Positions 25,315 through 58,421 of a DNA stretch of 64,000 nucleotides are shown in pieces (positions within the stretch are counted from its first letter, which is position 1; each line of letters opens with the position of its first letter). The notes under the pieces were generated by a model. The model did not search any database. It worked only from the letters and a program-made list of their open reading frames with translations, and was not told the origin of the DNA. The position numbers were made by a program, and so were the translations under genes. Origin of the DNA: Candidatus Brocadiia bacterium. GTDB lineage: Bacteria > Planctomycetota > PUPC01 > DSUN01. Location: the NCBI GenBank assembly GCA_046538415.1, contig JBKHIY010000013.1, forward strand, positions 747 to 64,746, given 5' to 3'.

Positions 25315-25380
25315 CTGTAGCGCGACGGGGGGAAGGTGTCAACTGAGAAGCGGCGGAGGAGCGGGCGGCGTCGGGGCGGG

Positions 25381-25424
25381 TTAAAAGCCGAGCAGCCCGC
25401 CTTGGGAGGCGGGCTGCTCGGGGC
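25381..25424 (-). terminator. Intrinsic terminator after the prepilin/DUF1559 gene
   Basis: On the minus strand the 15-bp GC stem reads GCCGAGCAGCCCGCC-tcccaa-GGCGGGCTGCTCGGC and is followed by TTTTAA. Confidence 0.6.
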
Positions 25425-25442
25425 GACACTGGATGGTCTGCC

Positions 25443-26111: not shown

Positions 26112-26171
26112 CTTGTCTCACCCCCTTTCTGGGTTGAAAAGGCTATAGGCTGTGACCTGACACCACCCTAA

Positions 26172-29577: not shown

Positions 29578-30612
29578 CTAGCGGGAGCCTGCCTGGTCGA
29601 CCTGGAGCCGCTCGAAGCCGCTGGAGCGCGCCGTAGCCAGCTCCCCGTCGCGGCGGTACATGATGAGCATCTCGACCTCCTCGCGCTTTTCGGCGAAGGC
29701 CAGCGCCTGCTCGACCCCCATCACGCTCGCCGCCGTGGCGTAGGCGTCGGCGGTCATCGGGTCGGCCGCCACCACGGTGACGCTGGTCATGTCCTCCACG
29801 GGACGGCCGGTGCGAGGGTCCAGGATGTGGGAGTAGCGCCGCCCGTCGACCATTCCGAACTGCTCGTAGTCGCCCGAGGTGGCCACGGCGCGGTCGCGCA
29901 GGAGGATGGGCCGGGGCAGGATCTTGCCTCGCCGGCTGGGGTCGCGGACGCCGATGAGCCAGCCCTCGCGGCCCGGCGGGGCGCCCACGCCGTAGATGTC
30001 GCCGCCGGCGTCCACCAGAGCGGCGCGAATGCCATGGGCCTGGAGGGCTTCGATCGCCTGGGCCACGGCGTAGCCCTTGCCGATGCCGCTGAGCTCGAGC
30101 CTCTGGCCCGCCTTGGCCAGCCGCACGCGGGGCGCGTCGGGAGCGCACTCCACCGACCGGTAGTCCACGAGAGCCCTGGCCGCCGCGATCTCTTCGTCGC
30201 CGGGGCGCTTGCCCGTGCGCCAGCTGCGCCGCCACAGCGCCACCACGGGGCCCACCGTGGGGTCGAAGGCGCCGCGGGTCTCCTCGGCGATCTCCACGGC
30301 CCTCCGCAGGGGCACCCACAGATGCTCGCTCACGGCCATGGGCGGCGACCCGGCGGCGCGGTTGAGCTTCGAGACGTCGCTGTCCTCCCGCCAGGTGCTG
30401 GTGGCCGCCTCCACCTCCTCGACGCGCTGGAACGCGGCCTCGATGGCCCGCAGCCCTGCCTCCCGCCCGGGCGCGTAGACGGTCACCGCCATGTAGGTGC
30501 CCATGGGCCTGCGCGTGCGGGACAGGCGCACCAGGTCGGCCTCCCCGGCGCCGCTCCGCGCGGCGGCGAGGACCAGCAGGCACGCGACGGGCTGGATGCG
30601 CGCTGCTCGCAT
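29578..30612 (-). CDS. apbE: FAD:protein FMN transferase
   Basis: 344 aa. A signal or lipoprotein-like N-terminus is followed by MGTYMAVTVYA, GIGKGYAVAQAIEAL and a TSGDYEQF motif typical of ApbE. Confidence 0.85.
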   Translation of the reverse strand: MRAARIQPVACLLVLAAARSGAGEADLVRLSRTRRPMGTYMAVTVYAPGREAGLRAIEAAFQRVEEVEAATSTWREDSDVSKLNRAAGSPPMAVSEHLWVPLRRAVEIAEETRGAFDPTVGPVVALWRRSWRTGKRPGDEEIAAARALVDYRSVECAPDAPRVRLAKAGQRLELSGIGKGYAVAQAIEALQAHGIRAALVDAGGDIYGVGAPPGREGWLIGVRDPSRRGKILPRPILLRDRAVATSGDYEQFGMVDGRRYSHILDPRTGRPVEDMTSVTVVAADPMTADAYATAASVMGVEQALAFAEKREEVEMLIMYRRDGELATARSSGFERLQVDQAGSR

Positions 30613-30726
30613 CAGGGCACACTCCCATCTCCCCCTGTCATTCTAGCAGAATGGGCACGGGGGAAAAACCATGGCATGGGCCTCGCCGTATGTCCTCACG
30701 CCGGTCCCTGGGCGAGGGCAGCACCA

Positions 30727-39758: not shown

Positions 39759-41249
39759 GTGCATTGTCCCTCCTTCCCCGAGTTTCAGCGGCTGGCTCGC
39801 ACGGCCAACGTGATTCCCGTCTACCGCCAGCTCCTGGCCGACACCCTTACGCCGGTCTCCGCCTTCCAGAAGCTGGACGTGGCGGACCACGGCTTCCTCC
39901 TGGAAAGCGTGACGGGGGGCGAGCGGATCGGACGCTACTCCTTCCTGGGGGGCGGCCCGCCGGCCATCCTCCGGGCGCGGGACCACCGCGTGGAGATCGT
40001 CAGGGGGCAGGCCGTCAAGCAGTACGAGTCGGCCGACCCGCTGGGCGAGGTGGAGCAGCTCCTGGCCCACACCCACCCGGCGCGGCTGCCCGACCTGGAG
40101 GCCTTCACGGGCGGCGTGGTGGGCTACCTGGGCTACGACGTGGTGCGCTACGTGGAGGACCTGCCCCACGCCCCCAGCGACGACCTGGGCCTGCCCGACA
40201 TCTACCTCCTGGCCTGCGAGACCCTGGTGGTCTTCGACCACGTGTTCAAGACCATCAAGGTGGTCACCAACGCCCGGCTCGACGGGCGCTCGGCCCGCGA
40301 GGCCTACGACCAGGCGGCGAGCCGCATCGACGCCGTGGTCGAGCGCCTGCGCACCCCCGTCACCCAGGTGACCGACGACGTGCGCCCCGCCGGCGAGGTC
40401 ACCGTGCCCTTCGAATCGAACTTCACCCGGCAGGACTTCGAGGACGCCGTGCGCCGCTGCCTGGACTACATCCGCGCCGGCGACATCATCCAGGTCGTCC
40501 TCTCTCAGCGGCTGGCGGTCGAGACCCAGGCCCACCCCTTCGACGTCTACCGCGTGCTGCGGGTGGTCAACCCCTCGCCCTACATGTTTTATCTCCGCCT
40601 GGGGGAGCTGACCCTGGTAGGGGCCTCGCCCGAGGTGATGGTCAAGCTGGAGGGGGATAAGGTGACCGTGCGGCCCATCGCCGGCACCCGCCCCCGCGGG
40701 GCCACTGCCGAGGACGACGAGCGCCTGGCCGCCGAGCTGCTCGCCGACCCCAAGGAGCGGGCCGAGCACGCCATGCTCCTCGACCTGGGGCGCAACGACG
40801 TAGGCCGCGTGGCGCGCTACGGCTCCGTGACCGTCGACGAGCAGATGGTGATCGAGCGCTACTCCCACGTGATGCACATCACCTCCAACGTCACGGGGCG
40901 GCTCCGCCCCGACGCAGGCCCCTTCGACGTCCTCCGCGCCTGCCTCCCCGCGGGCACCGTGTCCGGAGCCCCCAAGGTGCGGGCCATGCAAATCGTCGAC
41001 GAGCTGGAGCCCACCCGCCGTGGCCCCTACGCCGGGGCCGTAGGCACCATCGATTTCCACGGCAACATCAATACCTGCATCACCATCCGAACCATCGCCT
41101 TCCACCAGGGCAGGGCCTACGTGCAGGTGGGCGCCGGGATGGTGGCCGACTCCGTGCCCGCGCGAGAGCACGAGGAGACCATCAACAAGGCCAAGGCCCT
41201 GCTCCGGGCCATCGAGCTGGCCGAGCAACTGTCCGGCGGCCACGGCTAA
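39759..41249 (+). CDS. trpE: Anthranilate synthase component I
   Basis: LLESVTGGERIGRYSFLG is the Trp-binding region. The chorismate-binding C-terminus carries GAVGTIDFHGNINTCITIRT. A GTG at 39759 after GGAGG is preferred over the Arg-rich ATG at 39714. Confidence 0.9.
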   Translation: MHCPSFPEFQRLARTANVIPVYRQLLADTLTPVSAFQKLDVADHGFLLESVTGGERIGRYSFLGGGPPAILRARDHRVEIVRGQAVKQYESADPLGEVEQLLAHTHPARLPDLEAFTGGVVGYLGYDVVRYVEDLPHAPSDDLGLPDIYLLACETLVVFDHVFKTIKVVTNARLDGRSAREAYDQAASRIDAVVERLRTPVTQVTDDVRPAGEVTVPFESNFTRQDFEDAVRRCLDYIRAGDIIQVVLSQRLAVETQAHPFDVYRVLRVVNPSPYMFYLRLGELTLVGASPEVMVKLEGDKVTVRPIAGTRPRGATAEDDERLAAELLADPKERAEHAMLLDLGRNDVGRVARYGSVTVDEQMVIERYSHVMHITSNVTGRLRPDAGPFDVLRACLPAGTVSGAPKVRAMQIVDELEPTRRGPYAGAVGTIDFHGNINTCITIRTIAFHQGRAYVQVGAGMVADSVPAREHEETINKAKALLRAIELAEQLSGGHG

Positions 41250-42457
41250 CGGCCCGCGGCCAGACCCTCGTAGAGTTCCGCCATCTGCCCCAGGAATCGC
41301 GCCTCGGTGTAGTGCGTCAGCACTCGCTGGCGAGCCGCGGCGGCGAGCTCACGACGCCATCCGGCATCGTCCAGAAGCCGTGCCACGGCCCGGGCGAAGC
41401 CCCGCCAGTCCCCGGGCTCGATCAGCAGCCCGCTTCGCTCGTGCTCCACGGCGTCGCGGTTGCCCGTCACGTCCGATGCCACGGGCACCACGCCGCGGGC
41501 CATGGCCTCGAGCAGCGAGTAAGGCAGGCCCTCGTAGCGGGAGGGCAGGACCACGGCGTCGAAGGCGGCGACCAGGTCGGCCGCGTCCGCGCGGTGCCCC
41601 AGCACGCGGATGGGCAGGGACGGCGACCACAGGACCGGCTCGGCGGGCCTCAGGTCGCGCACCACCACCCGCCACACCGGGGGCGCGTAGCGGGGCTCCA
41701 GGCTCCGCAGGTAGCGGGGATTGTCGGTCCGACCGACCAGGAAGGCGTGGACGTCGGGGCGCGGGCGCCGAAGCTCGCTCACCGCAGAGAGGTAGGTCTG
41801 CACGTCCTTCTGCGGGGTCAGCCGGCCTACGAAGGCCACGGCCCCGGCCTCGTCGGCCAGCTCCAGCTCCCGCCGGTAGCGTGCCCGCAGCGCCCCGGGG
41901 GCGGCTTCGGGGGGCCGAATGCCGTTTTCCACGACCAACAGCTTCTCCTCCTCGCACAGCCGCGCGCGGCGAGCGGTCTCCCGCTGGCTGGGGGCGACCA
42001 GCACGATGCGGTCCGCCCAGCGCGCCGCGCGGCGCTCGAGGCGCCGATAGAGCCAGCCCAGCCGCGTGTCCGCCCGCTCGAAGGGGAAAGTGTGGGGGGT
42101 ATGGACGACCGCCGGCACCCTCGCGCGCCGGGCGGCCAGGCGGCCCAGGAAACCCGCCTTCGCCGCGTGCGTATGCACCACGTCGTAGCTCCCGCGTTTC
42201 ATCAAGCGGGTGAGCTGGCCGAGGGCGGCGCAATCGGCCCGCGCGCTGGGGGCCCGCTTCATGGGCACCACCTCGACCTCGCAGCCTTCGGCGCGGAGGC
42301 CCTCGACCACCTCCTCGCCCTCGCCCCCTCGCTCCACGGAGCAGGCGAGGTGGAGGTCGAAGCGGCGGCGGTCAAGCCCCCTAAGGATCTGCTCGACGTG
42401 CTTGCGCGCCCCCCCGGCGTAGGCCTCTACGACCTCCAGGATTCGGATGGGCTTCAT
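41246..42457 (-). CDS. Glycosyltransferase family 4 (GT-B, EX7E type)
   Basis: 403 aa. The N-terminal RILEVVEAYAGGARKHV and the C-terminal LPSRYEGLPYSLLEAMARGVPVVASD carry the EX7E motif. It is convergent with trpE by 4 nt. Confidence 0.85.
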   Translation of the reverse strand: MKPIRILEVVEAYAGGARKHVEQILRGLDRRRFDLHLACSVERGGEGEEVVEGLRAEGCEVEVVPMKRAPSARADCAALGQLTRLMKRGSYDVVHTHAAKAGFLGRLAARRARVPAVVHTPHTFPFERADTRLGWLYRRLERRAARWADRIVLVAPSQRETARRARLCEEEKLLVVENGIRPPEAAPGALRARYRRELELADEAGAVAFVGRLTPQKDVQTYLSAVSELRRPRPDVHAFLVGRTDNPRYLRSLEPRYAPPVWRVVVRDLRPAEPVLWSPSLPIRVLGHRADAADLVAAFDAVVLPSRYEGLPYSLLEAMARGVVPVASDVTGNRDAVEHERSGLLIEPGDWRGFARAVARLLDDAGWRRELAAAARQRVLTHYTEARFLGQMAELYEGLAAGR

Positions 42458-42641: not shown

Positions 42642-43319
42642 GTGCTGATAGAAGTACATAGGAAGTCGGACAAGAGGGCACAGCAGGAGGCCCGGGCGCG
42701 AAGAAGGGCGAAGAGATGCCGGGCCGCCGCGCTGGCCGCGGCCTTCGCCGCCACCATCGTCGCCTGCTTCCTGCTGGGGCGGCTGGCCAGGCCCGCCGAG
42801 GACTGGTCGCGCCAGCATACCGATACCGACGACGACCCCAAGGTCTTCCGTAACTCCTTCCTCGGCCTGTGCATGCTGATTCCCGACGAAGACGACTGGC
42901 GGATGGTCAGCGATCCTTCCCACTTTCGCTTTCAGGGCCTGAAGGGCGTCAACAAGGTGCTGGAAATCGACCGGATGGTCGGCCCCGGGGAAAGCCGCCG
43001 CCAGTGGGCGCGGATGGACCTCTTCGTCCATCCCCTCTACGGCCAGGTGGAGCCCGACCACGTGCTGCGCGTGCTCGAGTTCCGGCCCCAGCGTCCCGGC
43101 TTCCGCATCGTTGACGAGCGGACGGTGACCATCGGGGGAGAGGAGGGGACGGCGCGCACCGGTGCCTGGAGCCTCGGGGGGCGGCGGTTCCGGGCCATCA
43201 ACTACGCGGTGAGCCACGCCGAACGCCTCTTGTGCTTCGTCGCGGTGTGCGAGGCGGAGGCCTTCGCCCGGCACCGCGCGCGCTTCGACCGGATCGTTGC
43301 CTCCGTCCGCTTCGAGTAG
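42642..43319 (+). CDS. Cassette partner X1, a small membrane-anchored hypothetical protein
   Basis: 225 aa with a GTG start. A basic N-terminus is followed by a TM helix AAALAAAFAATIVACFLLGRL. The C-terminal motif LLCFVAVCEAEAFARHRARFDRIVASVRFE is shared with X2 and X3. Confidence 0.5.
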   Translation: MLIEVHRKSDKRAQQEARARRRAKRCRAAALAAAFAATIVACFLLGRLARPAEDWSRQHTDTDDDPKVFRNSFLGLCMLIPDEDDWRMVSDPSHFRFQGLKGVNKVLEIDRMVGPGESRRQWARMDLFVHPLYGQVEPDHVLRVLEFRPQRPGFRIVDERTVTIGGEEGTARTGAWSLGGRRFRAINYAVSHAERLLCFVAVCEAEAFARHRARFDRIVASVRFE

Positions 43320-43633
43320 CCCGCCCCGCGACCTCCATCGCCGCCGCCCATCAACCCATACCCCAGGCCCGTCGCAGGCCCCGCCACGCGGTGCTCTGGC
43401 CCGCCGCTGCGGGGGAGGCAAGCCCCGAGGCGACCACGTCGCGGCGCCCTGCCTGGGCGCCAGCCCCGGCGCATAAGTGTCGCTATACCAGATGGGTATG
43501 CGTAGCTGAGGCAGTCCCGCACGGTGGCTCAGCCGCCCGCCGGCACGCCGCTTGCACGATGCACCAAGCGCCTGCGGCGAGACCGCCGCCGGAAGCCGTG
43601 AAGACGCCGAGCCAAGGGAAAAGGAGAACGACG

Positions 43634-45094
43634 ATGGGTGGACTGCGAACGAGGAACCGAAGGGCCTTCGTCGCCGTCGAGGTGGCCGCCGTGGTGGCCG
43701 TGATCGCGCTGCTGCTGGCCATGGGCTTCATGCTCTATCGCGGCATGCGGCTCGCCGCCCGGGCCTCCCTGGCCGAGAGCAACCTCAAGCAGGTCTCCAC
43801 GGGGATGGAGCTCTACTTCCGCAAGTACAACAGCTATCCCCCCGAGGGCAGCGACCTGACGGCCGAGCTGGCTCCCTTCGTGACCGACCCCGACGCCTTC
43901 GCCAACCCCCTCAAGGAGGAGCAGAGCCCGGGCGAGACCCTCAACGCCCTCTACAAGGAGCCCTCCCTGGAGCAGCTCGACAGCCCCGACCACTACATCA
44001 CCTCCCTGGTCTCCGAGGACGGCCGCACCGTGGTGGTGCTGAAGACCGGCGGTAAGGTCGAGCGCCGCAACGACTTGCGGTTCGACCCCGACGCGCCGCC
44101 CGGCGACCTGGTGGCCATGCTCGACCCGGAAACGACCACCAGCTCGGGCGATGGCGACGACGACGTGGTGATCCTTGCCGCGCCCGACGAGCCCACCGAT
44201 ACCAGCTCGCCCGATGACCATAGCAACGAGGTCGTCCCCGGGGTGATCAAGGTCCTCGACGACGTGGTCGTGGACTTCGAGGTCATCGAGACCGCGCTCA
44301 GCTCCGGCACCACGGACCTGGACGTCTTCGTGGAGGGCAAGTTCGGCAAGGCCATCACCTACGTAGTGGTCCAGGACGGGGTGAGCCGCGTGAAGTTCGA
44401 GGACGCCCCGGAGGGCCTGGGCGAGGACGACGCCCAGGAGACCGACCGCTTCGTGATGAGCGTCCAGGGCACCACCGACTCGGTCACCGTCTCCACCAAG
44501 GCGGCTACGGGCAAGGCCACTACCACCCTGCCCGCCGAGGTGGGCGCCACGGCCAAGGACGAGCTGGGCTTCGTGATCACCGTCGAGAGCATCTCCGACG
44601 ATAGTGTCTACACCCTCTCGGTGAGCAGCGAGAGCAACGAGCACGCCCTCAGCCACGTGGAGTTCGACTTCGGCGAAGGCACGGAAGTCGAGGTGACCGA
44701 GGACGTTACGCGGATGAGCGGCGAGCCGCTCTTCGGCGGCGCCGACGTGGACGGCGGCGAGTTCGACTCCAAGACCCTCGCCAAGGACCAGTCCTTCGCC
44801 CTCATCGGCATCGCCGGCACCGCCACCTACGCCAGCGACGTCCACACCTCCCAGGTACTCACCCTGCGCAACGGCGATCAGGCGTTCGAGGACCCCGCGA
44901 CGAGCAACATCCCCATCACCGGCACCCCGCTGGAGGGCCTCATCGACCCCGTCACCGGCACGGTCACCATCGAGAACGACCAGGTGCTGTTCCTCTTCGA
45001 GCTGGGCACCATCGACCCCAGCAGCAGCGCCTTCGACCTCGACGACCTCGTCGTCCTCGCCACCCTCAAGAAGACCGCCACCAGCGAGCAGTAG
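43634..45094 (+). CDS. Cassette protein Y1, a large acidic type IV pilin-like protein
   Basis: 486 aa, preceded by the Shine-Dalgarno AAGGAG. The class III signal MGGLRTRNRRA|FVAVEVAAVVAVIALLLAMGF has F at +1 and E at +5. A pilin-like helix follows. Then come Asp/Glu/Thr/Ser-rich linkers and two beta-rich modules, A (KFEDAPEGLGEDDAQETD…HALSHVEFDFGEG) and B (VLTLRNGD…DLVVLATLKK). Confidence 0.6.
   Translation: MGGLRTRNRRAFVAVEVAAVVAVIALLLAMGFMLYRGMRLAARASLAESNLKQVSTGMELYFRKYNSYPPEGSDLTAELAPFVTDPDAFANPLKEEQSPGETLNALYKEPSLEQLDSPDHYITSLVSEDGRTVVVLKTGGKVERRNDLRFDPDAPPGDLVAMLDPETTTSSGDGDDDVVILAAPDEPTDTSSPDDHSNEVVPGVIKVLDDVVVDFEVIETALSSGTTDLDVFVEGKFGKAITYVVVQDGVSRVKFEDAPEGLGEDDAQETDRFVMSVQGTTDSVTVSTKAATGKATTTLPAEVGATAKDELGFVITVESISDDSVYTLSVSSESNEHALSHVEFDFGEGTEVEVTEDVTRMSGEPLFGGADVDGGEFDSKTLAKDQSFALIGIAGTATYASDVHTSQVLTLRNGDQAFEDPATSNIPITGTPLEGLIDPVTGTVTIENDQVLFLFELGTIDPSSSAFDLDDLVVLATLKKTATSEQ
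43664..43873. repeat. Conserved pilin-helix coding segment, copy 1
   Basis: It is about 85% nt-identical to 46207..46416, with FVAVEVAAVVAVIALLL…NLKQVSTGMELYFR. Boundaries are approximate. Confidence 0.5.
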
Positions 45095-45143
45095 GGCGCA
45101 GAGGACGCCGCCGAGATGAGCACCTCCATCGGGACAAAGGCCC

Positions 45144-45180
45144 GCCTGGGCACGGAGCCGCCTGCCCGTGCCCAGGCGGC
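45144..45180 (+). other. GC-rich hairpin downstream of Y1, a possible attenuator or partial terminator
   Basis: GCCTGGGCACGG-agccgcctgc-CCGTGCCCAGGC is a 12-bp stem. It is followed by an A-rich rather than a U-rich tract. Confidence 0.35.
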
Positions 45181-45250
45181 CAAAACTCCACTGAAACCGA
45201 GGACACCACGAGCCCAGAGCTGGCAGCCGCATCCACCGGACACTCAAGCC

Positions 45251-45859
45251 ATGAACACACGTCGACGCACCGCCCGCCTCCTGCTCGCCGCACTGGGCGC
45301 CGCTCTCCTGGCAGCGGGGTGCAGCAGCTCGAAGGACGAGCGGTACTACCGCGGCCCGGCCTTCGAAGTCGGTAAGCCCCCTTCCCAAGGGTGGATCCTG
45401 GTCTCCAAGCCCAGGAACTTCGCGTTCGCAGCGGCCCGCGGCCACGTGGGGCTCGCGGACACGGCGGAGGGCAAGCTCGTGGAGCTGACCAACCCCGCGG
45501 CCCGGGCCTCCGCCGAAATCTACCTCGTCGACACCACTGCCGCCGACACGCAGACCGTCGTCACAGCTCTCCTTCGCCAGCCGCCGAGGCGCCACCTGAC
45601 CGAGGGGCCGAGGAGACGCGTCCTCGTCGACGGCCGCGAGGGAGTCGGAAGCATCTTCGCCTGGCGACAGAGCCGCAACGCCACGACCTACTATCTCTAC
45701 TGCGTGCGAGTGCCGCTGGGCACCAAGCTGTGGTGCTTCGTGGGCACGGCCCCGGCCGAAGCCTTCCCTCGCCTGCGGTGGGACTTCAAGACGGTGCTCC
45801 GCACCGTGCGCTTCAAGGCCCCTGCTTTGGCCACGGCGGGCGTGAACGGCAAAGGATAA
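45251..45859 (+). CDS. Cassette partner X2, a lipoprotein
   Basis: 202 aa. MNTRRRTARLLLAALGAALLAAGCSSSK is a lipobox LAAGC. The C-terminal motif LWCFVGTAPAEAFPRLRWDFKTVLRTVRF is homologous to X1 and X3. Confidence 0.5.
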   Translation: MNTRRRTARLLLAALGAALLAAGCSSSKDERYYRGPAFEVGKPPSQGWILVSKPRNFAFAAARGHVGLADTAEGKLVELTNPAARASAEIYLVDTTAADTQTVVTALLRQPPRRHLTEGPRRRVLVDGREGVGSIFAWRQSRNATTYYLYCVRVPLGTKLWCFVGTAPAEAFPRLRWDFKTVLRTVRFKAPALATAGVNGKG

Positions 45860-46176
45860 TCCCCGGGTGGGGAGGGGGCAAGGCGCGACGACTCCGCGCC
45901 GTCCGCCCACCGGTCGCTCGCCGGAACCCGGGCCCCGCGCGACGGGGCCCAACCCCCGCGATGCGTAGGCGCCTCGCCACCGGCGAGAGCCCGTCGCGAC
46001 GGGCGCCAACCGCCCGCACAATCCCACAACAGCCTGTGGCATAGACGCTTAGGCCTCCAGGCCGGTCCCCCCCGGGAAACCGCGGCCCGAGGCGGCACGG
46101 GGCTTGCAAGCGGGCAGGGACGGTGGCGAAGGAACTGACCGCGCCTGGTCTCACGCACTGGGGAGAGGAGAGAACA

Positions 46177-48087
46177 ATGAGCGGGTCCCGACGCACGAAG
46201 AAGACGGGCTTCGTGGCCGTAGAGGTGGCCGCCGTGGTGGCGGTGATCGCGCTGCTCCTGGCCCTGGGCTTCATGCTCTATCGAGGCATGCGACTGGCGG
46301 CCCACGCCTCCGTCGCCGAGAACAACCTCAAGCAGGTCTCCACCGGCATGGAGCTCTACTTCCGCCAGTACAGCAGCTATCCGCCGGAGGATAGCGACCT
46401 GACCGTCGAGCTGGCGCCCTTCGTCGAGAATCCGGAAGTCTTCGAAAACCCCCTGCTGGACGAAGAAGCTCCCGGCGAGACCATCAACAAGCTCTACCGC
46501 CAGCCCACCCTCGAGGAGCTCGACCGCCCCGACCAGTACATCACCGCCATGGTCTCCGATAACGGGAAGACCGCGGTGATCCTCAAGACCAACAGCAAGG
46601 TGGAACGGGAGGACGACCTGCTCTTCGACCCCGACGCCCCCGCCGAAGAGCTCCTGGCCGTCCTCGACCCCGACCTGGGCGAGGAGGAGGACGCGCCCGA
46701 CGCGCCCGCAGAGCCCGTAGAGGAGGAGGCGGGCTTCGACTTCCACGACGACGGGGAGGTCGAGACCAGGACCTGCTCCGACCTCCGCATCTTCATCGTC
46801 GGCTCCCAATTCGGCTACGAGGACGGGAGCCTGGTGGACGTCGTGACCGAGGCCGACCTGGGGGACGGCTGGTTCGACCTCTTCAACGGCCAGCCCGTGC
46901 GGGCTGGCGACGAGTTCACCCGCGACAGCGTGCCCGCAGGCACCCGGGTGGTGGTGAAGGGCGAGATCGCCGGGGCCTACGAGCGCTGGCTGTGGAGCTA
47001 CTACGGCTACCCCCTCTCCTACAGGTCCACCGACGGCACGGGCCAGGTGCTCACCCTCCAGCGGGGCGACACCCCGGTCTACTTCGAGCCCGGGTTCCCC
47101 TGCCAGGCGCCCGTGGGCGAGCTGCTCGCCCCCTACGTGGACCCCCAGACAGGCACCGTGACCATCGCCGAGAACGAGGCGTTGTGGCTGTGGGACTTCA
47201 ATCCCCTGGAGACCGAGTACGGCATCGACTTCCAGGACCTCATCGTCCTGGCCACGGCCACCGTCGCCGAGCGCGAGTGTGAAGAAGACGACGAGGGCGG
47301 CGGCTCGGAGCCGCCTTCCGAGGACCCTGAGCCCGTGCTCGCCATCGCCTCGGACGGCGTGAGCGAAGGCGAGATCGAGGACACCACGTCGAGCGTCGAG
47401 TACGTGGTCGAGCGCGACGAGGACAACACCATCAAGTTCGAGGACGCTCCCGTGGGCCTCGGCGAGGACGGCGCCCACCAGACCGACGAGTTCGTCATCT
47501 CCGTCGAGGGCGACGTGACCAGCGTGAAGGTCAAGACCAAGGCGGCCACGGGCACGGCGACCAACGATGTGCCCCTCGGTGGCAGCGTGACCGACACCCT
47601 GGGCTTCCGGACCAGCCTCGAGCCCCTGGGCGGCGGCCAGTACAAGCTCTCGGTCACCAGCGTGAGCAACCGCCACGCCCTCAGCCACGTGGAATTCGAA
47701 TTCGAGGGCGGCGAGGTCGTCGGCCCCGATGGCCCCTACGCGGCCACCCGACGCGAGGAGGCCACGGTTCCCAGTAGCTATACCGCCACCGCGGTGATCA
47801 CCAACACCGCCTCGGATCCGCAGGACGCCGCCGCCGACGTGCAGCTCGGCATCCAAGTGGTCGAGGGCGCGAGCCACGTCGAGGCCATCCAGTGCCAGAC
47901 CGACGTCGGCTCCGTGCCCAGCGGCGAGAGCCATTCCGTGGACATCACCGTTACCACGAAGCCGAGCTGGCAGACCGCCTTCGGCGAGCACATCCGCGTG
48001 CGAGTGACCATCGAGAACGAGGCGAACGACCCCGACGTCAACGAGGGCAAGAGCGTGACCTTCACCTTCGACGGGCCGGAGGGCTAG
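46177..48087 (+). CDS. Cassette protein Y2, a large acidic type IV pilin-like protein
   Basis: 636 aa, preceded by the Shine-Dalgarno GGAGAGGAGAG. The class III signal MSGSRRTKKTG|FVAVEV… is the canonical G/F…E at +5. The pilin helix is about 85% nt-identical to Y1. Module order is B' (VLTLQRGD…DLIVLATATV), an acidic linker, A' (KFEDAPVGLGEDGAHQTD…HALSHVEFEFEGG), and then an extra C-terminal beta domain. Confidence 0.6.
   Translation: MSGSRRTKKTGFVAVEVAAVVAVIALLLALGFMLYRGMRLAAHASVAENNLKQVSTGMELYFRQYSSYPPEDSDLTVELAPFVENPEVFENPLLDEEAPGETINKLYRQPTLEELDRPDQYITAMVSDNGKTAVILKTNSKVEREDDLLFDPDAPAEELLAVLDPDLGEEEDAPDAPAEPVEEEAGFDFHDDGEVETRTCSDLRIFIVGSQFGYEDGSLVDVVTEADLGDGWFDLFNGQPVRAGDEFTRDSVPAGTRVVVKGEIAGAYERWLWSYYGYPLSYRSTDGTGQVLTLQRGDTPVYFEPGFPCQAPVGELLAPYVDPQTGTVTIAENEALWLWDFNPLETEYGIDFQDLIVLATATVAERECEEDDEGGGSEPPSEDPEPVLAIASDGVSEGEIEDTTSSVEYVVERDEDNTIKFEDAPVGLGEDGAHQTDEFVISVEGDVTSVKVKTKAATGTATNDVPLGGSVTDTLGFRTSLEPLGGGQYKLSVTSVSNRHALSHVEFEFEGGEVVGPDGPYAATRREEATVPSSYTATAVITNTASDPQDAAADVQLGIQVVEGASHVEAIQCQTDVGSVPSGESHSVDITVTTKPSWQTAFGEHIRVRVTIENEANDPDVNEGKSVTFTFDGPEG
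46207..46416. repeat. Conserved pilin-helix coding segment, copy 2
   Basis: See copy 1. Confidence 0.5.
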
Positions 48088-48134
48088 GGCCCCGCCCTCG
48101 GCCCGGGCGAGCGCGGCCGCTCGCCGGTCATCCG

Positions 48135-48164
48135 CCCCGGGCGCGGCAGCTCCCGCGCCCGGGG
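48135..48164 (+). other. GC hairpin downstream of Y2
   Basis: CCCCGGGCGCGG-cagctc-CCGCGCCCGGGG is a 12-bp perfect stem followed by CTTCC. Confidence 0.35.
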
Positions 48165-48302
48165 CTTCCGCATGCGTAAGCGTGTCAGACACCTATGAAC
48201 ACGGCTTGACGGCGGGCGCGACTCCGGACATGCTTGCAGGGGGCCCCGCGCCCGCGGCGGAGGGCCCGGGGCCGCAACGACACGCGAGATGAGGGGGACG
48301 AG

Positions 48303-49052
48303 ATGCAGCGCTCGACCATCGCCATCGCCGCAGCGCTCCTGGCCGCAGGCGGAGCGGCGTTTCTCGCCGGGCGCGCCGGCACTCGCCGCAAGCTGGTCCC
48401 GGCCGTGGCCATGGCCCGGCCGGCAACCGTCGGCGCCCAGGATGCCCGCTCGGAGCCGCCGGCCGCAGACATCCCAGCCTCCCGGGCCGTCCGTGAGGCC
48501 CCCGCTGGCAACGAGCAACGGCCGCAGCCCCTCGCTGCGCCGGAACCGGCGGAGCGCACCGTATGCCAGACCTTCGAAGACGACGAGCTGGAGGTGAAGG
48601 TCGAGAAGCCGAAGAGCACGGACTGGACGGTGTCGACCAAGAGGACCAACTTCCGCGACCCCGTGCGCCATCCGGCCAAGGTCCTGGAGATGCGAAGAAA
48701 CCCTCGATCCGGGGAGCCGAAGTTTGCTATCATAGAGTTGTTCGTCGCGGAGATTCCCTCGGGCTCGACGGCGTGGCAGGAGGTGGAGCGCTTCGAGAAG
48801 CTGGGCCGACGCGGCGTCCTGGCGTCCTTCGAGGTGGTGGAGGAGGGGACGGTGCGAATCGGTGGGCGGGCGTTCACCCGCCGCGTGTCGCTATGCAGGT
48901 GGCGGGGCCGCCGGGAGCAAGCGAAGTTCCTGAGCGTCCATACCGTGCTGGAGGGCAAGCTCTACCTGCTGATGGGCTATGCGTCGGCGGAGCACTTCGA
49001 CGAGCTGCTGCCGGAATTCGAGCAGGCGTTCGCGTCGCTGGAGATTGGCTGA
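48303..49052 (+). CDS. Cassette partner X3, a membrane-anchored hypothetical protein
   Basis: 249 aa from an ATG after the Shine-Dalgarno GAGGGGGA. The N-terminal TM helix is IAIAAALLAAGGAAFLAG. The C-terminal motif LYLLMGYASAEHFDELLPEFEQAFASLEI is shared with X1 and X2. Confidence 0.5.
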   Translation: MQRSTIAIAAALLAAGGAAFLAGRAGTRRKLVPAVAMARPATVGAQDARSEPPAADIPASRAVREAPAGNEQRPQPLAAPEPAERTVCQTFEDDELEVKVEKPKSTDWTVSTKRTNFRDPVRHPAKVLEMRRNPRSGEPKFAIIELFVAEIPSGSTAWQEVERFEKLGRRGVLASFEVVEEGTVRIGGRAFTRRVSLCRWRGRREQAKFLSVHTVLEGKLYLLMGYASAEHFDELLPEFEQAFASLEIG

Positions 49053-50750: not shown

Positions 50751-51635
50751 TCAGCGTCGCTTGCGGCACACGAAGCCCATCAGCTCGCGGTCGTACTCCG
50801 CGTCGAACCCCGCGCTCGACAGGTGCTGGGCGATGCTGCGATGGAAGTCCTTCTGGCCCCGCCGCGAGAAGGGGACCCCCACGTAGTGGTACATCTTGCC
50901 GCTGGCGCCCAGCACGCGGCTGAGCTCGAAATAGAAATGCTTGTCGTAGAGGGGTGCCGCCCGCGAGAAATGCGGGGGGTCGTGGACCGCGGAGTCGAAC
51001 GAGCCGGAGGGCTGGCTGGCCAGGTAGTCGGTCACGTCCTCAGGGATCACGTCGATGCGGCTATCGAAGAAGTACTCCTCGGACCACGGGTTCAGGCGGG
51101 CCAGTTCCAGGACGTCGAGGTCGTACTCGACGGAAACCACGCGCTCGGCCCCCAGGCGAGCCGCCCAGATGGCCGTATAGCCCAGGCCCCCGCAGGTGTC
51201 CAGGAACCGGTCCCCCGTGGTCACCACGCTGCGCACGATGAGCTCCGCCTGTGTATAGGGGCAGCAGCCCTCCGTGCGGTGCATCTTCACCCCGCTCATC
51301 TCCAGCGTAGGGGCCGTGTCGGTGGCCAGCAGGCGGTAGTGGTAGGTGCCCTGCCGCTCCACGGGCACCAGCTCGCCCCCTCGAACCACGAACACCCGCT
51401 TCCCCCGACGGGACAGCGACCGCAGGTCGTCCACGGACAGCTCGGCCTCGTCGGGGAACACCACCTTGCGACCCTCGATGCGGACCACCGACCGCGAGCG
51501 GTTGAGGTCCAGCGACACCGTGGCTCGATCTTTCCGCGCTCGCCGAGCCTTCAGCACCTCGCCTGCGACCGAGGAGGTGAGGCAAACGCGCTGCGTGGGG
51601 GGAACGTGAAGATCGGGAAGATGTGGTTGGGACAT
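50751..51635 (-). CDS. Class I SAM-dependent methyltransferase with an (N/D)PPH motif, a putative N-methyltransferase of RNA or DNA
   Basis: 294 aa. The SAM-binding motif is LDTCGGLGYTAIWAARLGA…VVSVEYD. Motif IV is VHDPPHF, which is DPPY-like. Confidence 0.65.
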   Translation of the reverse strand: MSQPHLPDLHVPPTQRVCLTSSVAGEVLKARRARKDRATVSLDLNRSRSVVRIEGRKVVFPDEAELSVDDLRSLSRRGKRVFVVRGGELVPVERQGTYHYRLLATDTAPTLEMSGVKMHRTEGCCPYTQAELIVRSVVTTGDRFLDTCGGLGYTAIWAARLGAERVVSVEYDLDVLELARLNPWSEEYFFDSRIDVIPEDVTDYLASQPSGSFDSAVHDPPHFSRAAPLYDKHFYFELSRVLGASGKMYHYVGVPFSRRGQKDFHRSIAQHLSSAGFDAEYDRELMGFVCRKRR

Positions 51636-51943: not shown

Positions 51944-53005
51944 GTGGAGTTGAAACGGCTACAAGGCGCCTGGACCGCGCTGGTGACCCCCTTCGCTATC
52001 GACGGGGACATCGCGTGGGACGAGTTCGAACGGCTCGTCGAATTCCAGATCGACCAGGGCATCGACGGCTTGGTGCCCGTGGGTACCACCGGCGAGTCTC
52101 CGACCCTGGAGTGGCGGGACCACGACCAGGTGATCGAGACCACCATCCGGCTCAGCCGCGGCCGCTGCGGCGTGCTCGCCGGCACTGGCTCCAACTCTAC
52201 GGCCGAGGCCCTCCGCGGCTCCAAGCACGCGGCCGAGGCCGGAGCCCACGCGCTGCTGCTCGTGGACTGCTACTACAACGGCCCGTCCAGCCTCGAGCTG
52301 CGCCGTCACTACCACGGGGCCGTGGCCGAGGCCTGTCCCAAAACCCTCATCGTCCCCTACGTGATCCCAGGGCGTTCGGGCACCGCCCTGGCACCTGAAG
52401 ACCTCGCCCTGCTGGCCGATGCCTACCCCAACGTCCGCTCCGTCAAGGAGGCCACGGGAGACCTCGAGCGGATGGCCCACACCCGCGCCCTGGTCGGCGG
52501 GGACTTCGATATCCTCTCCGGCGACGACAACATGACGGCCACCATGATGCTCGACGAGGCGGTGAGGGCCGACGGCGTCGTCTCCGTGATGTCCAACGTA
52601 GTCCCCGCCTCGGTCGCCGCCATGGTCCGGGCACTGGCCGAGGGACGCAGCGACGAAGGCCTGGCCCGGGCCAAGGCGCTGGAGCCGCTGTTCGGCATCG
52701 TCACCGTGACGGTCGACGATCCCAGGAGCCTGCGGGGCCAGCCGCTCACCGTGCGCGACAAGTTCCGAAATCCGGCGCCGGTGAAGACCCTGATGCAGGG
52801 CCTGGGGATGATCGCCAACGGCTGCCGCCCGCCCCTGGGCAAGATGTCGCCAGCGGGGGTGGAGGTGGTGCGCGCCGCGGCCCGCGAGGTGTGGAGCACG
52901 AGCCCGGAGGTCCTCGAGCCCATCGCCGAAGCCTTCGATGTCGACATCGAGCAGCGCCTGGCCGACGACGCCCTCTGGGCCTCCCTCGCCGAGCCGTCCA
53001 CCTGA
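51944..53005 (+). CDS. DapA-family (4-hydroxy-tetrahydrodipicolinate synthase / N-acetylneuraminate lyase superfamily) protein
   Basis: ALVTPF, GLVPVGTTGESPTL and the Schiff-base Lys context VKEATGD are present. It has a C-terminal extension of about 60 aa relative to typical DapA. The track ORF starts at 51926 (GTG). Confidence 0.75.
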   Translation: MELKRLQGAWTALVTPFAIDGDIAWDEFERLVEFQIDQGIDGLVPVGTTGESPTLEWRDHDQVIETTIRLSRGRCGVLAGTGSNSTAEALRGSKHAAEAGAHALLLVDCYYNGPSSLELRRHYHGAVAEACPKTLIVPYVIPGRSGTALAPEDLALLADAYPNVRSVKEATGDLERMAHTRALVGGDFDILSGDDNMTATMMLDEAVRADGVVSVMSNVVPASVAAMVRALAEGRSDEGLARAKALEPLFGIVTVTVDDPRSLRGQPLTVRDKFRNPAPVKTLMQGLGMIANGCRPPLGKMSPAGVEVVRAAAREVWSTSPEVLEPIAEAFDVDIEQRLADDALWASLAEPST

Positions 53006-53057
53006 CCCCCGCGCTCGCGAAAACGGGCCGCGCTCTGGGAAAGGGGAAGACCCCAAC

Positions 53058-54170
53058 GTGACCACCAGCTATCCCGTCCGCTGGTCCCGGGTCGCTGTTG
53101 CCGCCCTGGCCGGCTTCGCTGCCGGCTGCGCCTACCAGCCGCGCCGCATGCTCCGTATCGCCGCCACCCGCAACGTGCTCGAGGGCCGGCCGGCCCGCGT
53201 CAGGGTCACGGTCAAGAACGTCCTCAGCCAGCCCATCGTCCCGGTCTCCCTGGGTCTCCACCTGCGTCGCGCCCCTGGCGAGTACTTCGCCCTCCCGCGG
53301 ACCCTGGCGGAGGCGGACTACCTGAGGCCCATCCGCGCCACCCAGGTGCGCCACTTGCCCTCGCTGAATCGAATCGAGGCATTGCATATCCGGGACGCCG
53401 GCGTGTGGCGGCGGGTGCCCAACTCGCGTTTCCTCCACCCCGCGCGCATCCTCCTGCCCGGCCAGAGCTACGTCGAGACCTTCGACTGCCAGGCCCGCCG
53501 CTACTACCGGGGGCGGCTCTACTGCGACCTCTACTACCTGCGCCTCGCCACGCCCCAGGTGGCCGGCAGCCTCTATCGCCGCGCCGGTCCGGAGACTGTC
53601 CCGCCCGACGCCGACCGCTACACCGAGGTATTCACCCCCGTGGAGCCCGAGCAGGTCTCTCCCGTCGCCTCGCCGCCCGACCGGTATCTCCTCGTCCGCC
53701 CCCGCGGGCCGTCCGCCCAGCCGGCCCGGCTGGTCCGCAAGCGCGTGCCCCTGGACGTCCGGCCCCGACCGTTCAGCTACCACGACGCCGCGGCCAAGGC
53801 CCGCTACGGGGCCCGCGACTACGCCTACTTCTCCGCCGCCGGCATGTGGGTCTTCGACTACGGCCCCGAGGGCACCTGGTTCGTCGGGCCGGTGGCCACC
53901 GTCAAGCTCCAGGGCTCCTACGTCGATCTCATCAAGGCTCTGGAGACTACCGACGCCGCCAGCCTCACGCTCACCGCGCCCCGACGTCCCGACGACAAGC
54001 TCGCAGCCCTGTTCCGCAAGGCCGGTTACACCGATCCCCAGGCCGCGGGCGACACGCTCCTCGCCACCATTCCCGTCGAGCACCTCCTGCCCACCCTGGA
54101 GCAAGCCGAGGCCCTCGGCTACGCCATCGACGGTACCACCTGGCGGCCCCTCGACGCCGCCGGCACCTAG
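53058..54170 (+). CDS. Hypothetical lipoprotein
   Basis: A GTG start after the Shine-Dalgarno AAGGGGAAG. The lipobox is LAGFAAGC. The body is Arg/Tyr/Pro-rich. No family was recognised. Confidence 0.45.
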   Translation: MTTSYPVRWSRVAVAALAGFAAGCAYQPRRMLRIAATRNVLEGRPARVRVTVKNVLSQPIVPVSLGLHLRRAPGEYFALPRTLAEADYLRPIRATQVRHLPSLNRIEALHIRDAGVWRRVPNSRFLHPARILLPGQSYVETFDCQARRYYRGRLYCDLYYLRLATPQVAGSLYRRAGPETVPPDADRYTEVFTPVEPEQVSPVASPPDRYLLVRPRGPSAQPARLVRKRVPLDVRPRPFSYHDAAAKARYGARDYAYFSAAGMWVFDYGPEGTWFVGPVATVKLQGSYVDLIKALETTDAASLTLTAPRRPDDKLAALFRKAGYTDPQAAGDTLLATIPVEHLLPTLEQAEALGYAIDGTTWRPLDAAGT

Positions 54171-56597: not shown

Positions 56598-56685
56598 GGG
56601 CGCTCTCCTGCCGTTCGATGGCGCGGGACGGCGATATTATAGCCGACCTGGGAATCGTCTTCAACGCCTTGGCCGGTGCGGAATC

Positions 56686-56713
56686 TTGACATTGGGCGCC
56701 CCTACGCTATACT
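56686..56713 (+). promoter_or_regulatory. Sigma70-consensus promoter for the FHA-GAF histidine kinase operon
   Basis: TTGACA-ttgggcgcccctacgc(16)-TATACT lies about 45 nt upstream of the ATG at 56763. Confidence 0.5.
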
Positions 56714-56762
56714 TGACCTCGATGCCGGACAGTGCCGGCCCGGACGCTCGCGAGGGGCCGCC

Positions 56763-58421
56763 ATGAAGCTGATCATCGCCAGGGGGCCGAACAAGGGCTC
56801 GCTCTTCGACGTGCCCGACGAGCGGTGCACCATCGGCCGTGCCCACTCGAACCGCGTGGTGCTCTACGACCGCCGCGTCTCCGCGCACCACGCGGCGGTC
56901 GAGCCCCAGGATAGCGGCTACGAGATCCGCGACCTGGGCAGCTCCAACGGCACCTACGTCAACGGCTTGCTCATTACGCGTTCGCGCCTCCGCCCCGGCG
57001 ACGCCATCCAGCTCGGGGACACCGTGCTGGCCTTCGAGCGCCTGCCCCAGCAGGAGGCGGAGCCGCCCTCCTTCGAGGTCGTGCGCGACGCCCCCGAGCA
57101 AAGCTCCACCATCCGGGCCACGGTCAAGCAGAAGGACTCCTCGACCATCGTCGGAGCGCGGCGGAAGAAGGTCGACGTGGATGCCCTGCGGGAGGATCGC
57201 CGCAAGCTCCTCGCCCTCTACCGCGTGAACAGCGCCATCAACTCCGTGCGCGAGACCCACGAGATGCTGTGCCGCGTGCTGGAGGAGATCTTCGACGTGC
57301 TCAATGCCGAGCGGGGCTTCGTCATGCTCCTCGACCAGGAGACGGGGGCCCTGTTGCCCGCCGCCATGCGTCGCCGCCGCGCCGAGGACGATGCTCCCCA
57401 GGTGACCATCAGCCGCACCATCGCCCGCCAGGTGATCGAGCAAGGCGAGGCGGTGCTCAGCGCCGACGCCGCCCACGACGAGCGCTTCGCCGCCTCCGAG
57501 AGTATCGTGGCCCACGGTATCCGCTCCGCCATGTGCGCCCCTCTGCACGGGCGGGCCAGCCTCCAGGGCATCATCTACCTGGATAACGTGGGCTCCGCCC
57601 ACAGCTTCACCCCTCGCGACCTCCGGCTGCTCACCGCCATGGCCAACCAAGTGGGCATCGCGGTAGAGAGCTCCCGCCTGGTCGAGGCTCGCGTGGCCGG
57701 CGAGCGCTACGCCGCCATCGGCCAGGCCGTGGCCGGGCTGTCCCATTACATCAAGAACATCCTGGGCTGCACTCAAGGCGGCGCTGCCATCGTCCAACGC
57801 GGGCTGGCCACGAGCGACCTGGAGGCCGTCCAGCGAGGGTGGGAGATCGTGCGCCGCAACGAGGCCAAGATCTCCGAGCTGGTGCTCGACATGCTCAACT
57901 ATTCGGGCGCCGCAGAGCCCCTCACCCGGCCCTCGCAGGTCAACGACATCGTCCGCGAGACCGCCGAGGACGTGGCTCCCCAGGCGGAGAAGGAGGTGCG
58001 GGTGGAATGCGACCTCGCTCCCCACCTCCCCGAGGCCCGGGTGGACCCCAACGCCGTTCACCGCTGCCTGCTCAACCTGGTGTCCAACGCCATCGATGCC
58101 CTTCCCGACGCCGGTGGCGTCGTGCGCCTCGCCACCCGCTACGATCGGGACGAGCAGGCGGTACGAATCGCCGTCACCGACAACGGCTGCGGCATCGAGC
58201 CCGAGCTGATCCCCACGCTCTTCAACGTCTTCGTGAGCACCAAGGGCTCCAAGGGCACGGGCCTGGGGCTGGCCGTGGTGGACAAGCTGGTGAAGGAGCA
58301 CGGGGGCCGGGTGGAGGTCGCATCCAGCCCCGGCGAAGGCAGCGCCTTCACCCTCGTCTTGCCCCTGGAGCCGGAGAGCGACGTCTCGGAGACGGCCCGG
58401 CCCGCCGCCCCCCCGTCCTGA
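56763..58421 (+). CDS. Sensor histidine kinase with N-terminal FHA and GAF domains
   Basis: The FHA region is CTIGRAHSNRVVLYDRRVSAHHAAV…GSSNGTYVNG. The GAF region is GFVMLLDQETG…IYLD. The HisKA H-box is AGLSHYIKNIL. The HATPase_c region carries the N (LLNLVSNAIDA), G1 (DNGCGI) and G2 (GTGLGL) boxes. Confidence 0.85.
   Translation: MKLIIARGPNKGSLFDVPDERCTIGRAHSNRVVLYDRRVSAHHAAVEPQDSGYEIRDLGSSNGTYVNGLLITRSRLRPGDAIQLGDTVLAFERLPQQEAEPPSFEVVRDAPEQSSTIRATVKQKDSSTIVGARRKKVDVDALREDRRKLLALYRVNSAINSVRETHEMLCRVLEEIFDVLNAERGFVMLLDQETGALLPAAMRRRRAEDDAPQVTISRTIARQVIEQGEAVLSADAAHDERFAASESIVAHGIRSAMCAPLHGRASLQGIIYLDNVGSAHSFTPRDLRLLTAMANQVGIAVESSRLVEARVAGERYAAIGQAVAGLSHYIKNILGCTQGGAAIVQRGLATSDLEAVQRGWEIVRRNEAKISELVLDMLNYSGAAEPLTRPSQVNDIVRETAEDVAPQAEKEVRVECDLAPHLPEARVDPNAVHRCLLNLVSNAIDALPDAGGVVRLATRYDRDEQAVRIAVTDNGCGIEPELIPTLFNVFVSTKGSKGTGLGLAVVDKLVKEHGGRVEVASSPGEGSAFTLVLPLEPESDVSETARPAAPPS

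Follow-up and report, generated by a model that had tools for sequence, protein, structure and literature searches.

Acidic modular type IV pilin-like proteins with predicted sigma-54 promoters and recurrent PsbP/DcrB-fold neighbours in uncultured Planctomycetota

Here, we describe a gene array in a 64-kb stretch of DNA (the window, ~70% G+C) that comprises nearly all of a 65-kb contig of a metagenome-assembled genome (MAG) labelled 'Candidatus Brocadiia bacterium' (Planctomycetota) at NCBI. Five genes on the plus strand, in the order X1-Y1-X2-Y2-X3, encode proteins of two kinds. Judged by their sequences, Y1 and Y2 are true type IV pilin-like proteins with class III signal peptides and additional beta-rich modules, and X1, X2 and X3 contain a domain of the PsbP/DcrB/Mog1 fold behind an N-terminal membrane tether. 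We consider it reasonably probable that the Y proteins are paralogous modular pilins on a type IV filament, each under its own sigma-54 promoter, and that X is their periplasmic partner. The Y proteins would then be of a known kind, and we know of no description of PsbP/DcrB-fold genes beside pilin genes, which makes the recurring neighbour undescribed to our knowledge. An earlier note on this DNA had not recognised the paired module of Y and X as a described system. This needs correction, as the architecture of Y fits that of published modular pilins (PMC8179133), and X is a divergent PsbP/DcrB/Mog1-fold domain according to a model of X1 and to the Pfam annotation of distant matches to the X profile.

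Results

A pilin domain at the N terminus of Y1 and Y2

The five same-strand genes are backed by third-position GC content, and the same proteins are found in the contig's public annotation (X1, ACLF0G_04475; Y1, _04480; X2, _04485; Y2, _04490); X3 is entry P0034 among the proteins of the exhaustive X profile search described below. The gene order given in the earlier note was therefore upheld. Y1 (43634–45094, + strand, 486 amino acids) and Y2 (46177–48087, + strand, 636 amino acids) begin with a short basic leader, which is followed by a class III cleavage site (RNRRA↓FVAVE and KKTG↓FVAVE, respectively). A glycine, alanine or serine at position −1, a hydrophobic residue at +1 and a glutamate at +5 are present in 20 out of 20 homologs whose N terminus is available, which bears out the prepilin-peptidase site as genuine. 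As had also been noticed, the conservation of the pilin-type N terminus extends to the nucleotide level, with 81% identity between the two genes over 300 nt (43663–43962 versus 46206–46505). The encoded pilin domains (residues 1–166; 43634–44131 in Y1 and 46177–46674 in Y2) are about 69% identical, and the mean column identity of the pilin head across the family is 65%.

The family is rare and occurs only in one small uncultured clade of the Planctomycetota: a search of 5.8 billion clusters yielded only 25 Y homologs, and only four loci were found among 185,579 species genomes, all of them in Planctomycetota MAGs. Searched alone, Y1 and Y2 gave sub-threshold matches to GspG, PilA, T2SSG and DUF1559. 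Across the 25 family members, N_methyl (PF07963) was matched by seven proteins (best E = 2.8e-7), DUF1559 by ten and T2SSG by eight. A profile of residues 1–166 compared with pilins of solved structure matched Geobacter PilA-N (E = 3e-12, 1.5e-10 and 1.9e-8) and PilE1 (E = 2e-4), and these alignments extend through the cleavage site.

Y2 was modelled with AlphaFold2 on the basis of the 25-sequence alignment, and the model has a mean predicted local distance difference test score (pLDDT) of 86. Its N-terminal helix spans residues 4–65 and leads into a small head with a three-stranded sheet that ends at about residue 165, so the model displays the pilin fold, a long N-terminal alpha-helix on an antiparallel beta-sheet head. 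The claim that the Y proteins end in beta-rich modules rather than in a compact pilin head is thus half right: the modules exist, but they are additional to a head at residues ~66–165.

Two families of prepilin-like proteins had to be compared with Y more closely. The abundant planctomycetal DUF1559/SBP_bac_10 proteins (PF07596) share with Y the type of leader and an 'NNLKQ(V/I)' segment in the helix, and their genes, like those of Y, lie dispersed in the genome away from machinery. Y aligns, however, only to positions 3–39 of the 268-position profile (12.9 bits versus a cut-off of 23.3), the H-X9-DG motif (TIGR04294) is absent from Y1 and Y2, and the C-terminal architecture is wholly different; Y1 and Y2 are not members of the DUF1559/H-X9-DG family. 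The window does contain true DUF1559 genes at 24328–26117. These are two ordinary planctomycete-type prepilin genes on the minus strand (24328–25338 and 25443–26117), one with N_methyl and DUF1559 and the other with the odd combination of GYF_2 followed by the N-terminal segment of DUF1559.

The second family is GspG, and with it comes the possibility that Y1 and Y2 belong to a type II secretion system as its pseudopilins and would form a periplasmic piston and not a surface fibre. The weak similarity to GspG/T2SSG (E = 0.005–0.13), the T2SSG matches mentioned above and the T2SSE-family ATPase encoded beside one Y homolog speak for it. On the other hand, Y1 and Y2 score only 12.3 and 17 bits on TIGR01710, whose cut-off is 88.85, and 12.8 bits on PF08334 (cut-off 21), which leaves them outside the GspG family, and their closest sequence matches of solved structure are type IV pilins, not GspG. 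As we also know of no pseudopilin with 300–800 residues of linker-joined beta-sandwich modules, we regard this explanation as very improbable.

Beta-rich modules and acidity of the Y proteins

Beyond the pilin head, the Y2 model consists of a disordered acidic linker (residues 168–181), a beta-rich module C (185–370; 46732–47286 in the DNA), a second disordered linker (371–381) and two beta-sandwich modules, B (388–515; 47386–47715) and D (520–636; 47776–48081). Domain hidden Markov models built on the Y family resolve Y2 into pilin, C, B and D, and Y1 into pilin, B (44345–44680, behind an acidic linker) and a short variant of C (44822–45079). Relatives of up to 976 amino acids carry C-C-D-D or C-C-C-B, so that the family spans 486–976 amino acids and the order of modules is shuffled among Y1, Y2 and their homologs.

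Sequence comparisons did not relate these modules to known families. No match to modules B and C was obtained in Pfam, and profiles of the two modules compared with PDB sequences gave nothing below E = 0.7. A kinship of module C with DUF4114, suggested by its '...FDxxDLVVLAT' ending, was rejected, since no Pfam match to DUF4114 was obtained at E values up to 0.1 in any of the 25 homologs. In a fold comparison, the matches of the modelled Y modules included CBM3-like modules (score 7.2), followed by domains of Gram-positive adhesins with lower scores; the predicted folds thus resemble those of lectins, carbohydrate-binding modules and adhesins.

In some Y homologs, the C-terminal module is a different one, marked by a 'PKGNGNQN' signature (NINPNN..DFEFEL..PDGS.ITRDDL...RVRPKGNGNQN..TVDG...NGT.Y.I....MTV.LYN...GNAMGKWWIE), which has no Pfam match and does not occur in Y1 or Y2; it was found in P0006, P0010, P0013–P0015, P0017, P0019 and P0021 (for example, at L001:11264–11599). 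Another protein, P0025 (601 amino acids, from contigs of ~3.4 kb), combines modules C and B without a pilin domain and has a start resembling an ordinary signal peptide, which shows that these modules occur outside the pilin context too.

The isoelectric points (pI) of Y1 and Y2 are ~4.1, and those of all Y proteins lie between 4.05 and 4.97. The earlier emphasis on extreme acidity was justified in that Asp and Glu make up 20% of the residues beyond position 165; 'almost no' Lys or Arg was an overstatement, as these amount to ~5%.

This architecture parallels that of the modular pilins, where the N-terminal pilin part bears a class III signal peptide and a linker connects it to at least one effector module of non-pilin type, such as a vWA, lectin, beta-repeat or beta-sandwich domain (PMC8179133). 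Examples are PilB and PilC of Streptococcus sanguinis, CofB of enterotoxigenic Escherichia coli (ETEC) and TcpB of Vibrio (Raynaud et al. 2021, PMC8179133). More than 1,200 modular pilins have been reported, besides which there must be many others with modules that have no signature; their presumed place is the pilus tip, where they would serve adhesion (PMC8179133). Y2, with three extra beta domains and disordered linkers behind its pilin module, conforms to this definition, and its folded modules, too, are without database signatures. The Y proteins differ from the published cases in that (i) their modules have no detectable sequence relation to PilB, PilC or CofB, (ii) they are strongly acidic, with long disordered acidic linkers and up to four or five modules (in homologs of 976 amino acids), and (iii) their genes lie outside any pil operon, have a predicted sigma-54 promoter each and are interleaved with PsbP-fold genes.

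Predicted sigma-54 promoters upstream of the Y genes

When the regions preceding eight Y genes (270–380 nt) were aligned, GGCA(C/T)-N5-TTGC proved invariant; it is the −24/−12 consensus of sigma-54-dependent promoters (GG at −24 and GC at −12, a fixed distance apart). The element of Y1 (GGCACGCCGCTTGC, 43542–43555, + strand) is located 79 nt upstream of the start codon and that of Y2 (GGCACGGGGCTTGC, 46094–46107, + strand) 70 nt upstream, and their positions fix the start codons of both genes. The pattern occurs exactly twice in the 64-kb window, both times before a Y gene. We then counted GGCAY-N5-TTGC over the 18 loci described below (the window and L001, L004, L005, L008–L011, L013–L016, L028, L029 and L031–L034): it is found on the same strand upstream of 26 of the 26 Y genes, with two other matches in 302,677 bp. 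The distance from the element to the start of the pilin-domain match is 79–112 nt in 22 genes and 275–338 nt in four.

Further conserved elements lie upstream. An AT-richer 'CATAAGT'-like box precedes the sigma-54 element by ~60 nt, and a GC-rich repeated or hairpin element, a conserved block of the alignment, is located ~150 nt before the promoter of Y1 (GGCCCCGC..., 43377–43419, + strand), with a counterpart upstream of the Y2 promoter (45931–45972, + strand). Allowing at most one mismatch, GGCCCCGC is present in 16 of the 20 regions upstream of Y genes, with a median position of −153, as compared to a background of 17–34%. The 'CATAAGT'-like box is a candidate site for an architectural protein and the GC-rich repeats are candidate activator sites; the copy at 43377–43419 could be either an activator-binding site or the terminator of X1.

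Each Y gene is thus predicted to be transcribed from its own sigma-54 promoter. A scan of the window found no such element belonging to X1. Considering the position of the elements, each Y gene, possibly together with the X gene downstream, would constitute a transcription unit of its own, with X1 outside it.

Control by sigma-54 and a PilR-type activator is the classical mode of regulation of pilA in Pseudomonas, Myxococcus and Geobacter. The Y element (TGGCACG-N4-TTGCW, 70–100 nt upstream of the start codon) resembles the PilR-dependent pilA promoters of P. aeruginosa, M. xanthus and Geobacter, and the conserved GC-rich repeats upstream draw a further parallel as possible activator sites. 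Unlike in the PilS/PilR-controlled systems, no gene for PilS/PilR-like or other enhancer-binding proteins, and no rpoN, was detected in the window (Pfam scans of 49 further predicted genes), and the Y promoters are predictions from sequence.

X proteins are tethered domains of the PsbP/DcrB/Mog1 fold

X1 (42642–43319, + strand, 225 amino acids) has a K/R-rich N-terminal tail, a transmembrane (TM) anchor and a periplasmic PsbP/DcrB-fold domain at residues ~65–225. X2 (45251–45859 in an open reading frame that opens at 45116, + strand, 202 amino acids) is a lipoprotein with the lipobox LAAG↓C, and X3 (48303–49052 in a frame that opens at 48234, + strand, 249 amino acids) has a TM anchor and a Pro/Ala-rich stalk; both carry the same domain. 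The anchors and a shared C-terminal motif had been recognised earlier, and both are seen in all three proteins: the motif corresponds to the strand-helix-strand unit with which the PsbP-like fold ends, including its C-terminal helix.

In the X1 model, the domain has a pLDDT of 80–93 and adopts the alpha-beta-alpha sandwich of the PsbP/DcrB/Mog1 fold. Sequence similarity to the fold is faint. X1 matches Pfam DcrB with E = 0.019 (15.5 bits, cut-off 27.2), X2 and X3 do not match the PsbP/DcrB families of Pfam (PF01789, PF08786 and PF18933), and a weak match of X to EagT6 has E = 0.09. Word-indexed searches with X yielded only three and seven proteins, and an exhaustive profile search of 1.84 billion representatives was needed. 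It returned 109 matches, of which ~34 form the core family; when 104 of the matches were annotated with Pfam, PsbP was found in 59, DcrB in 42 and PsbP_2 in 42.

Within the core family, three types separate cleanly; each has orthologs in several genomes, and they differ in the tether: a TM anchor in the X1 type, a lipid anchor in the X2 type, whose lipobox Cys is kept in all orthologs, and a TM anchor with a Pro-rich stalk in the X3 type. All three are predicted to face the periplasm. The X domains are mostly basic (median pI 9.2; 28 of 38 above 8). X1, X2 and X3 share 22–29% identity; they are old paralogs within a branch of the fold that is specific to this lineage.

The fold is also found in cyanobacterial PsbP (2xb3), Mycobacterium LpqN (6e5d), MTC28, Salmonella DcrB (6e8a), EagT6/SciW and the type VI secretion immunity proteins Tsi3/TplEi. 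The identity of these proteins to X is 6–15%, and X differs from them in forming three paralog types confined to one planctomycete lineage. The EagT6/SciW chaperones of type VI secretion systems (T6SS) share the fold with X but are cytoplasmic, whereas X is exported, as indicated by its TM anchor or lipobox. No T6SS or Rhs genes were found near the array in Pfam scans of the window, and X is not an Eag/DUF1795 chaperone.

X genes beside Y genes in related loci

Altogether, 18 distinct loci with 26 Y genes were collected, of which 15 are informative as to the presence of X and three are too short to tell. X adjoins Y in 11 of the 15. Most loci display the same synteny, namely S30AE, TrpE, a glycosyltransferase family 4 (GT4) gene on the opposite strand, the X/Y genes, rsgA, HAD, a conserved gene for a 294-amino-acid protein on the opposite strand and DapA. 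The GT4 neighbour is also present in L004, L009, L014, L029 and L033.

The composition of the block varies. The order in the window, X1-Y-X2-Y-X3, is replaced by X1-Y-Y-X3-X2 in L004, X1-Y-X3 in L009, X-Y-X in L014, Y-X3 in L008 and Y-Y-X-Y-X in L032; L033 has one Y ahead of GT4, then X-Y-X-X, and L029 has Y-Y with X1 missing. A recent tandem duplication of an X-Y unit was rejected as the origin of the array, as identity among the X paralogs, each of which has orthologs of its own, is only 22–29%, compared with ~69% between the Y pilin domains. Of the tandem two-gene cassette proposed earlier, the gene order remains; the iterated duplication is contradicted by the age of the X paralogs, by the other orders in relatives and by the lack of a 1:1 ratio.

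Two loci depart from the common synteny. In L013, X-Y-X-Y stands behind a WaaP-like kinase gene and two other GT4 genes. L015, a second locus of the MAG that also contains the syntenic L014, has neither rsgA nor GT4 nearby; here, the stop codon of a Y1-type gene overlaps the start of an X2-type lipoprotein gene, and the pair sits between genes for a PA14/BNR protein and an HZS_alpha-domain protein. The recurrence of X beside pilin-like genes in other genomes, which the earlier note had put forward for checking, was therefore confirmed, including a case outside the rsgA synteny. As a side observation, large proteins with a hydrazine-synthase-alpha middle domain (PF18582) are encoded near relocated Y1-type genes in two samples (L015:5864–8425 and L034:2647–5319, both on the minus strand).

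At the other end of the block, X3 is located directly upstream of rsgA, as are the X3-type orthologs in L005, L008 and L009; an X2-type gene intervenes in L004, an untyped X gene occupies this place in L014 and L032, and an X-X pair does so in L033.

Observations that weigh against a filament with periplasmic partners

Several observations weigh against the proposal that Y forms part of a type IV filament and that X is its partner. With regard to the filament, Y1 and Y2 alone reach no Pfam or NCBIfam threshold and have no N_methyl match. Moreover, the window encodes no prepilin peptidase, ATPase, platform protein or secretin: Pfam scans of 49 further predicted genes detected no T2SSE, secretin or other pilus-machinery family, and a GspE-type ATPase query had no match, so that the lack of pilus machinery reported earlier for the vicinity of the array extends to all 64 kb. 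A related locus is different in this respect. In L011, a Y homolog is followed by a gene for an MshEN+T2SSE (GspE/PilB-type) ATPase, a 321-amino-acid Y-like pilin (pilin and module B) and a prepilin-like gene, an order that ties the Y family to a type IV filament motor. This locus (L011:1007–6740) stems from JGI 3300035158, and its last gene encodes 150 amino acids, which end in a module-B-like segment and lack Glu at +5.

The lack of machinery in the window would be accounted for if the Y proteins were not filament subunits at all, but class III signal-anchored binding proteins of the surface or periplasm that, once cleaved, remain anchored in the membrane by the pilin helix or assemble into no more than short stubs, and whose lectin-like modules capture substrates, analogous to the sugar-binding proteins of the Sulfolobus 'bindosome' or to the role suspected for DUF1559. 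Such a function would suit their bulk, which is awkward for a major pilin, the resemblance of their N-terminal region to DUF1559 (SBP_bac_10), the pilin-less P0025 and the location of some Y homologs among sulfatase, glycosidase or BNR genes (L010 and L011). A mere anchor, however, would not need a pilin head as conserved as that of Y, the ATPase gene adjoins Y in L011, and sigma-54 promoters are typical of pilin genes. For these reasons we think that membrane-held binding proteins are quite unlikely. The published modular pilins, furthermore, are incorporated into pili (PMC8179133).

With regard to X, the four loci L001, L010, L011 and L016 have both flanks of Y available and lack X. Thus, X-Y pairing recurs, as the earlier note had surmised, but X is not an obligatory partner. 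The X:Y ratio is not fixed either (3:2, 2:1, 2:3 and 1:1), the adjacency is mostly confined to one syntenic, vertically inherited locus between GT4 and rsgA, and X3 is equally consistent as a neighbour of rsgA, which an X gene immediately precedes in eight syntenic loci. All of this would be expected if X and Y were neighbours by descent only and X1–X3 were general envelope proteins, for instance in lipoprotein or envelope biogenesis, with no role specific to Y. DcrB and LpqN, which have the same fold, function as general envelope factors, and the missing sigma-54 element of X1 fits in with this too. What such a descent-only association does not explain is (i) the overlapping Y-X pair retained in a different genomic context in L015, (ii) the X-Y-X-Y block beside different upstream genes in L013, (iii) a core X family that is as rare and lineage-restricted as Y (~34 clusters in 1.84 billion representatives) and (iv) X and Y genes that remain interleaved although their order within the block is shuffled. 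We therefore consider shared descent alone an unlikely explanation, and the evidence for a functional link between X and Y moderate.

Other features of the window

The immediate neighbours of the array named in the earlier note, GT4 upstream (41246–42457, − strand, divergent) and rsgA downstream, were both confirmed with Pfam. GT4 is a cytoplasmic-type enzyme and only a recurrent divergent neighbour of X and Y. The oligosaccharyltransferase that had been announced is likewise present: an STT3/AglB-like gene, recovered by frame-plot, is located at 27518–29500 (− strand; PF02516, E = 4e-17, and an AglB_core-like match), flanked by DUF1015 (26238–27452, − strand) and ApbE (29578–30642, − strand) genes. 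N-glycosylation by this enzyme was considered as a specific link to Y and rejected because neither Y1 nor Y2 contains an N-X-S/T sequon; the enzyme is probably unrelated to them.

Rfam had no match in the window, and scans of the array for sigma-70 promoters and intrinsic terminators gave nothing above chance on the plus strand. Two further genes retain their synteny in nearly all related loci and have no Pfam match here. One encodes the 294-amino-acid protein (50751–51635, − strand), whose ortholog in L008 has a weak N6_N4_Mtase match, and the other a protein of ~360–450 amino acids (52812–54170, + strand). An unusual sensor with FHA, GAF and HATPase_c domains, in which no HisKA domain was detected, is encoded at 56643–58421 (+ strand).

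Discussion

Combining the sequence and fold assignments with the promoter motif statistics, from which all further steps are inferred, we arrive at the following scheme. A sigma-54 activator of the enhancer-binding type, encoded elsewhere, would switch on the transcription of Y. The Y protein would enter the cytoplasmic membrane via its N-terminal helix and be cleaved after the Gly or Ala of its leader by a prepilin peptidase. Y would then be polymerised through its pilin domain by type IV filament machinery whose genes lie elsewhere in the genome. Because of its bulk, Y would most probably be located at the filament tip or be a sparse subunit, with its acidic binding modules displayed outside the cell. 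X, tethered at the periplasmic side of the membrane through a TM helix (X1 and X3) or a lipid anchor (X2), would serve as a dedicated docking or holding partner of membrane-anchored Y before or during assembly. This role is suggested by the conserved adjacency, the relocated overlapping Y-X pair in L015 and the opposite charge of the two proteins; the chaperone or anchor function that the earlier note proposed for X is likewise an inference.

A bolder version of this scheme, which we find doubtful, is that the Y-X pair embodies an undescribed accessory principle, in which each sigma-54-controlled, multi-module, lectin-like pilin needs a membrane-tethered PsbP-fold chaperone or docking factor, or in which X anchors, on the cell side, a surface array that is non-canonical and independent of machinery. 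If true, it would amount to a planctomycete-specific way of handling bulky acidic pilins and to the first pilus role for the PsbP/DcrB fold.

Prepilin-like proteins without a known function are very numerous in Planctomycetota, and almost nothing is known about whether and how these are assembled. The Y family offers a clean handle on this question, since it combines a pilin module, adhesin- or lectin-like cargo modules, a conserved, putative sigma-54 control region for each copy and a recurrent PsbP-fold neighbour. If X is a dedicated partner of Y, it would represent a new accessory class in type IV filament biology, and one branch of the widespread PsbP/DcrB fold would gain a function. Otherwise, the locus remains a well-defined case of modular pilins from an uncultured lineage, with predicted regulation like that of classical pilin genes.

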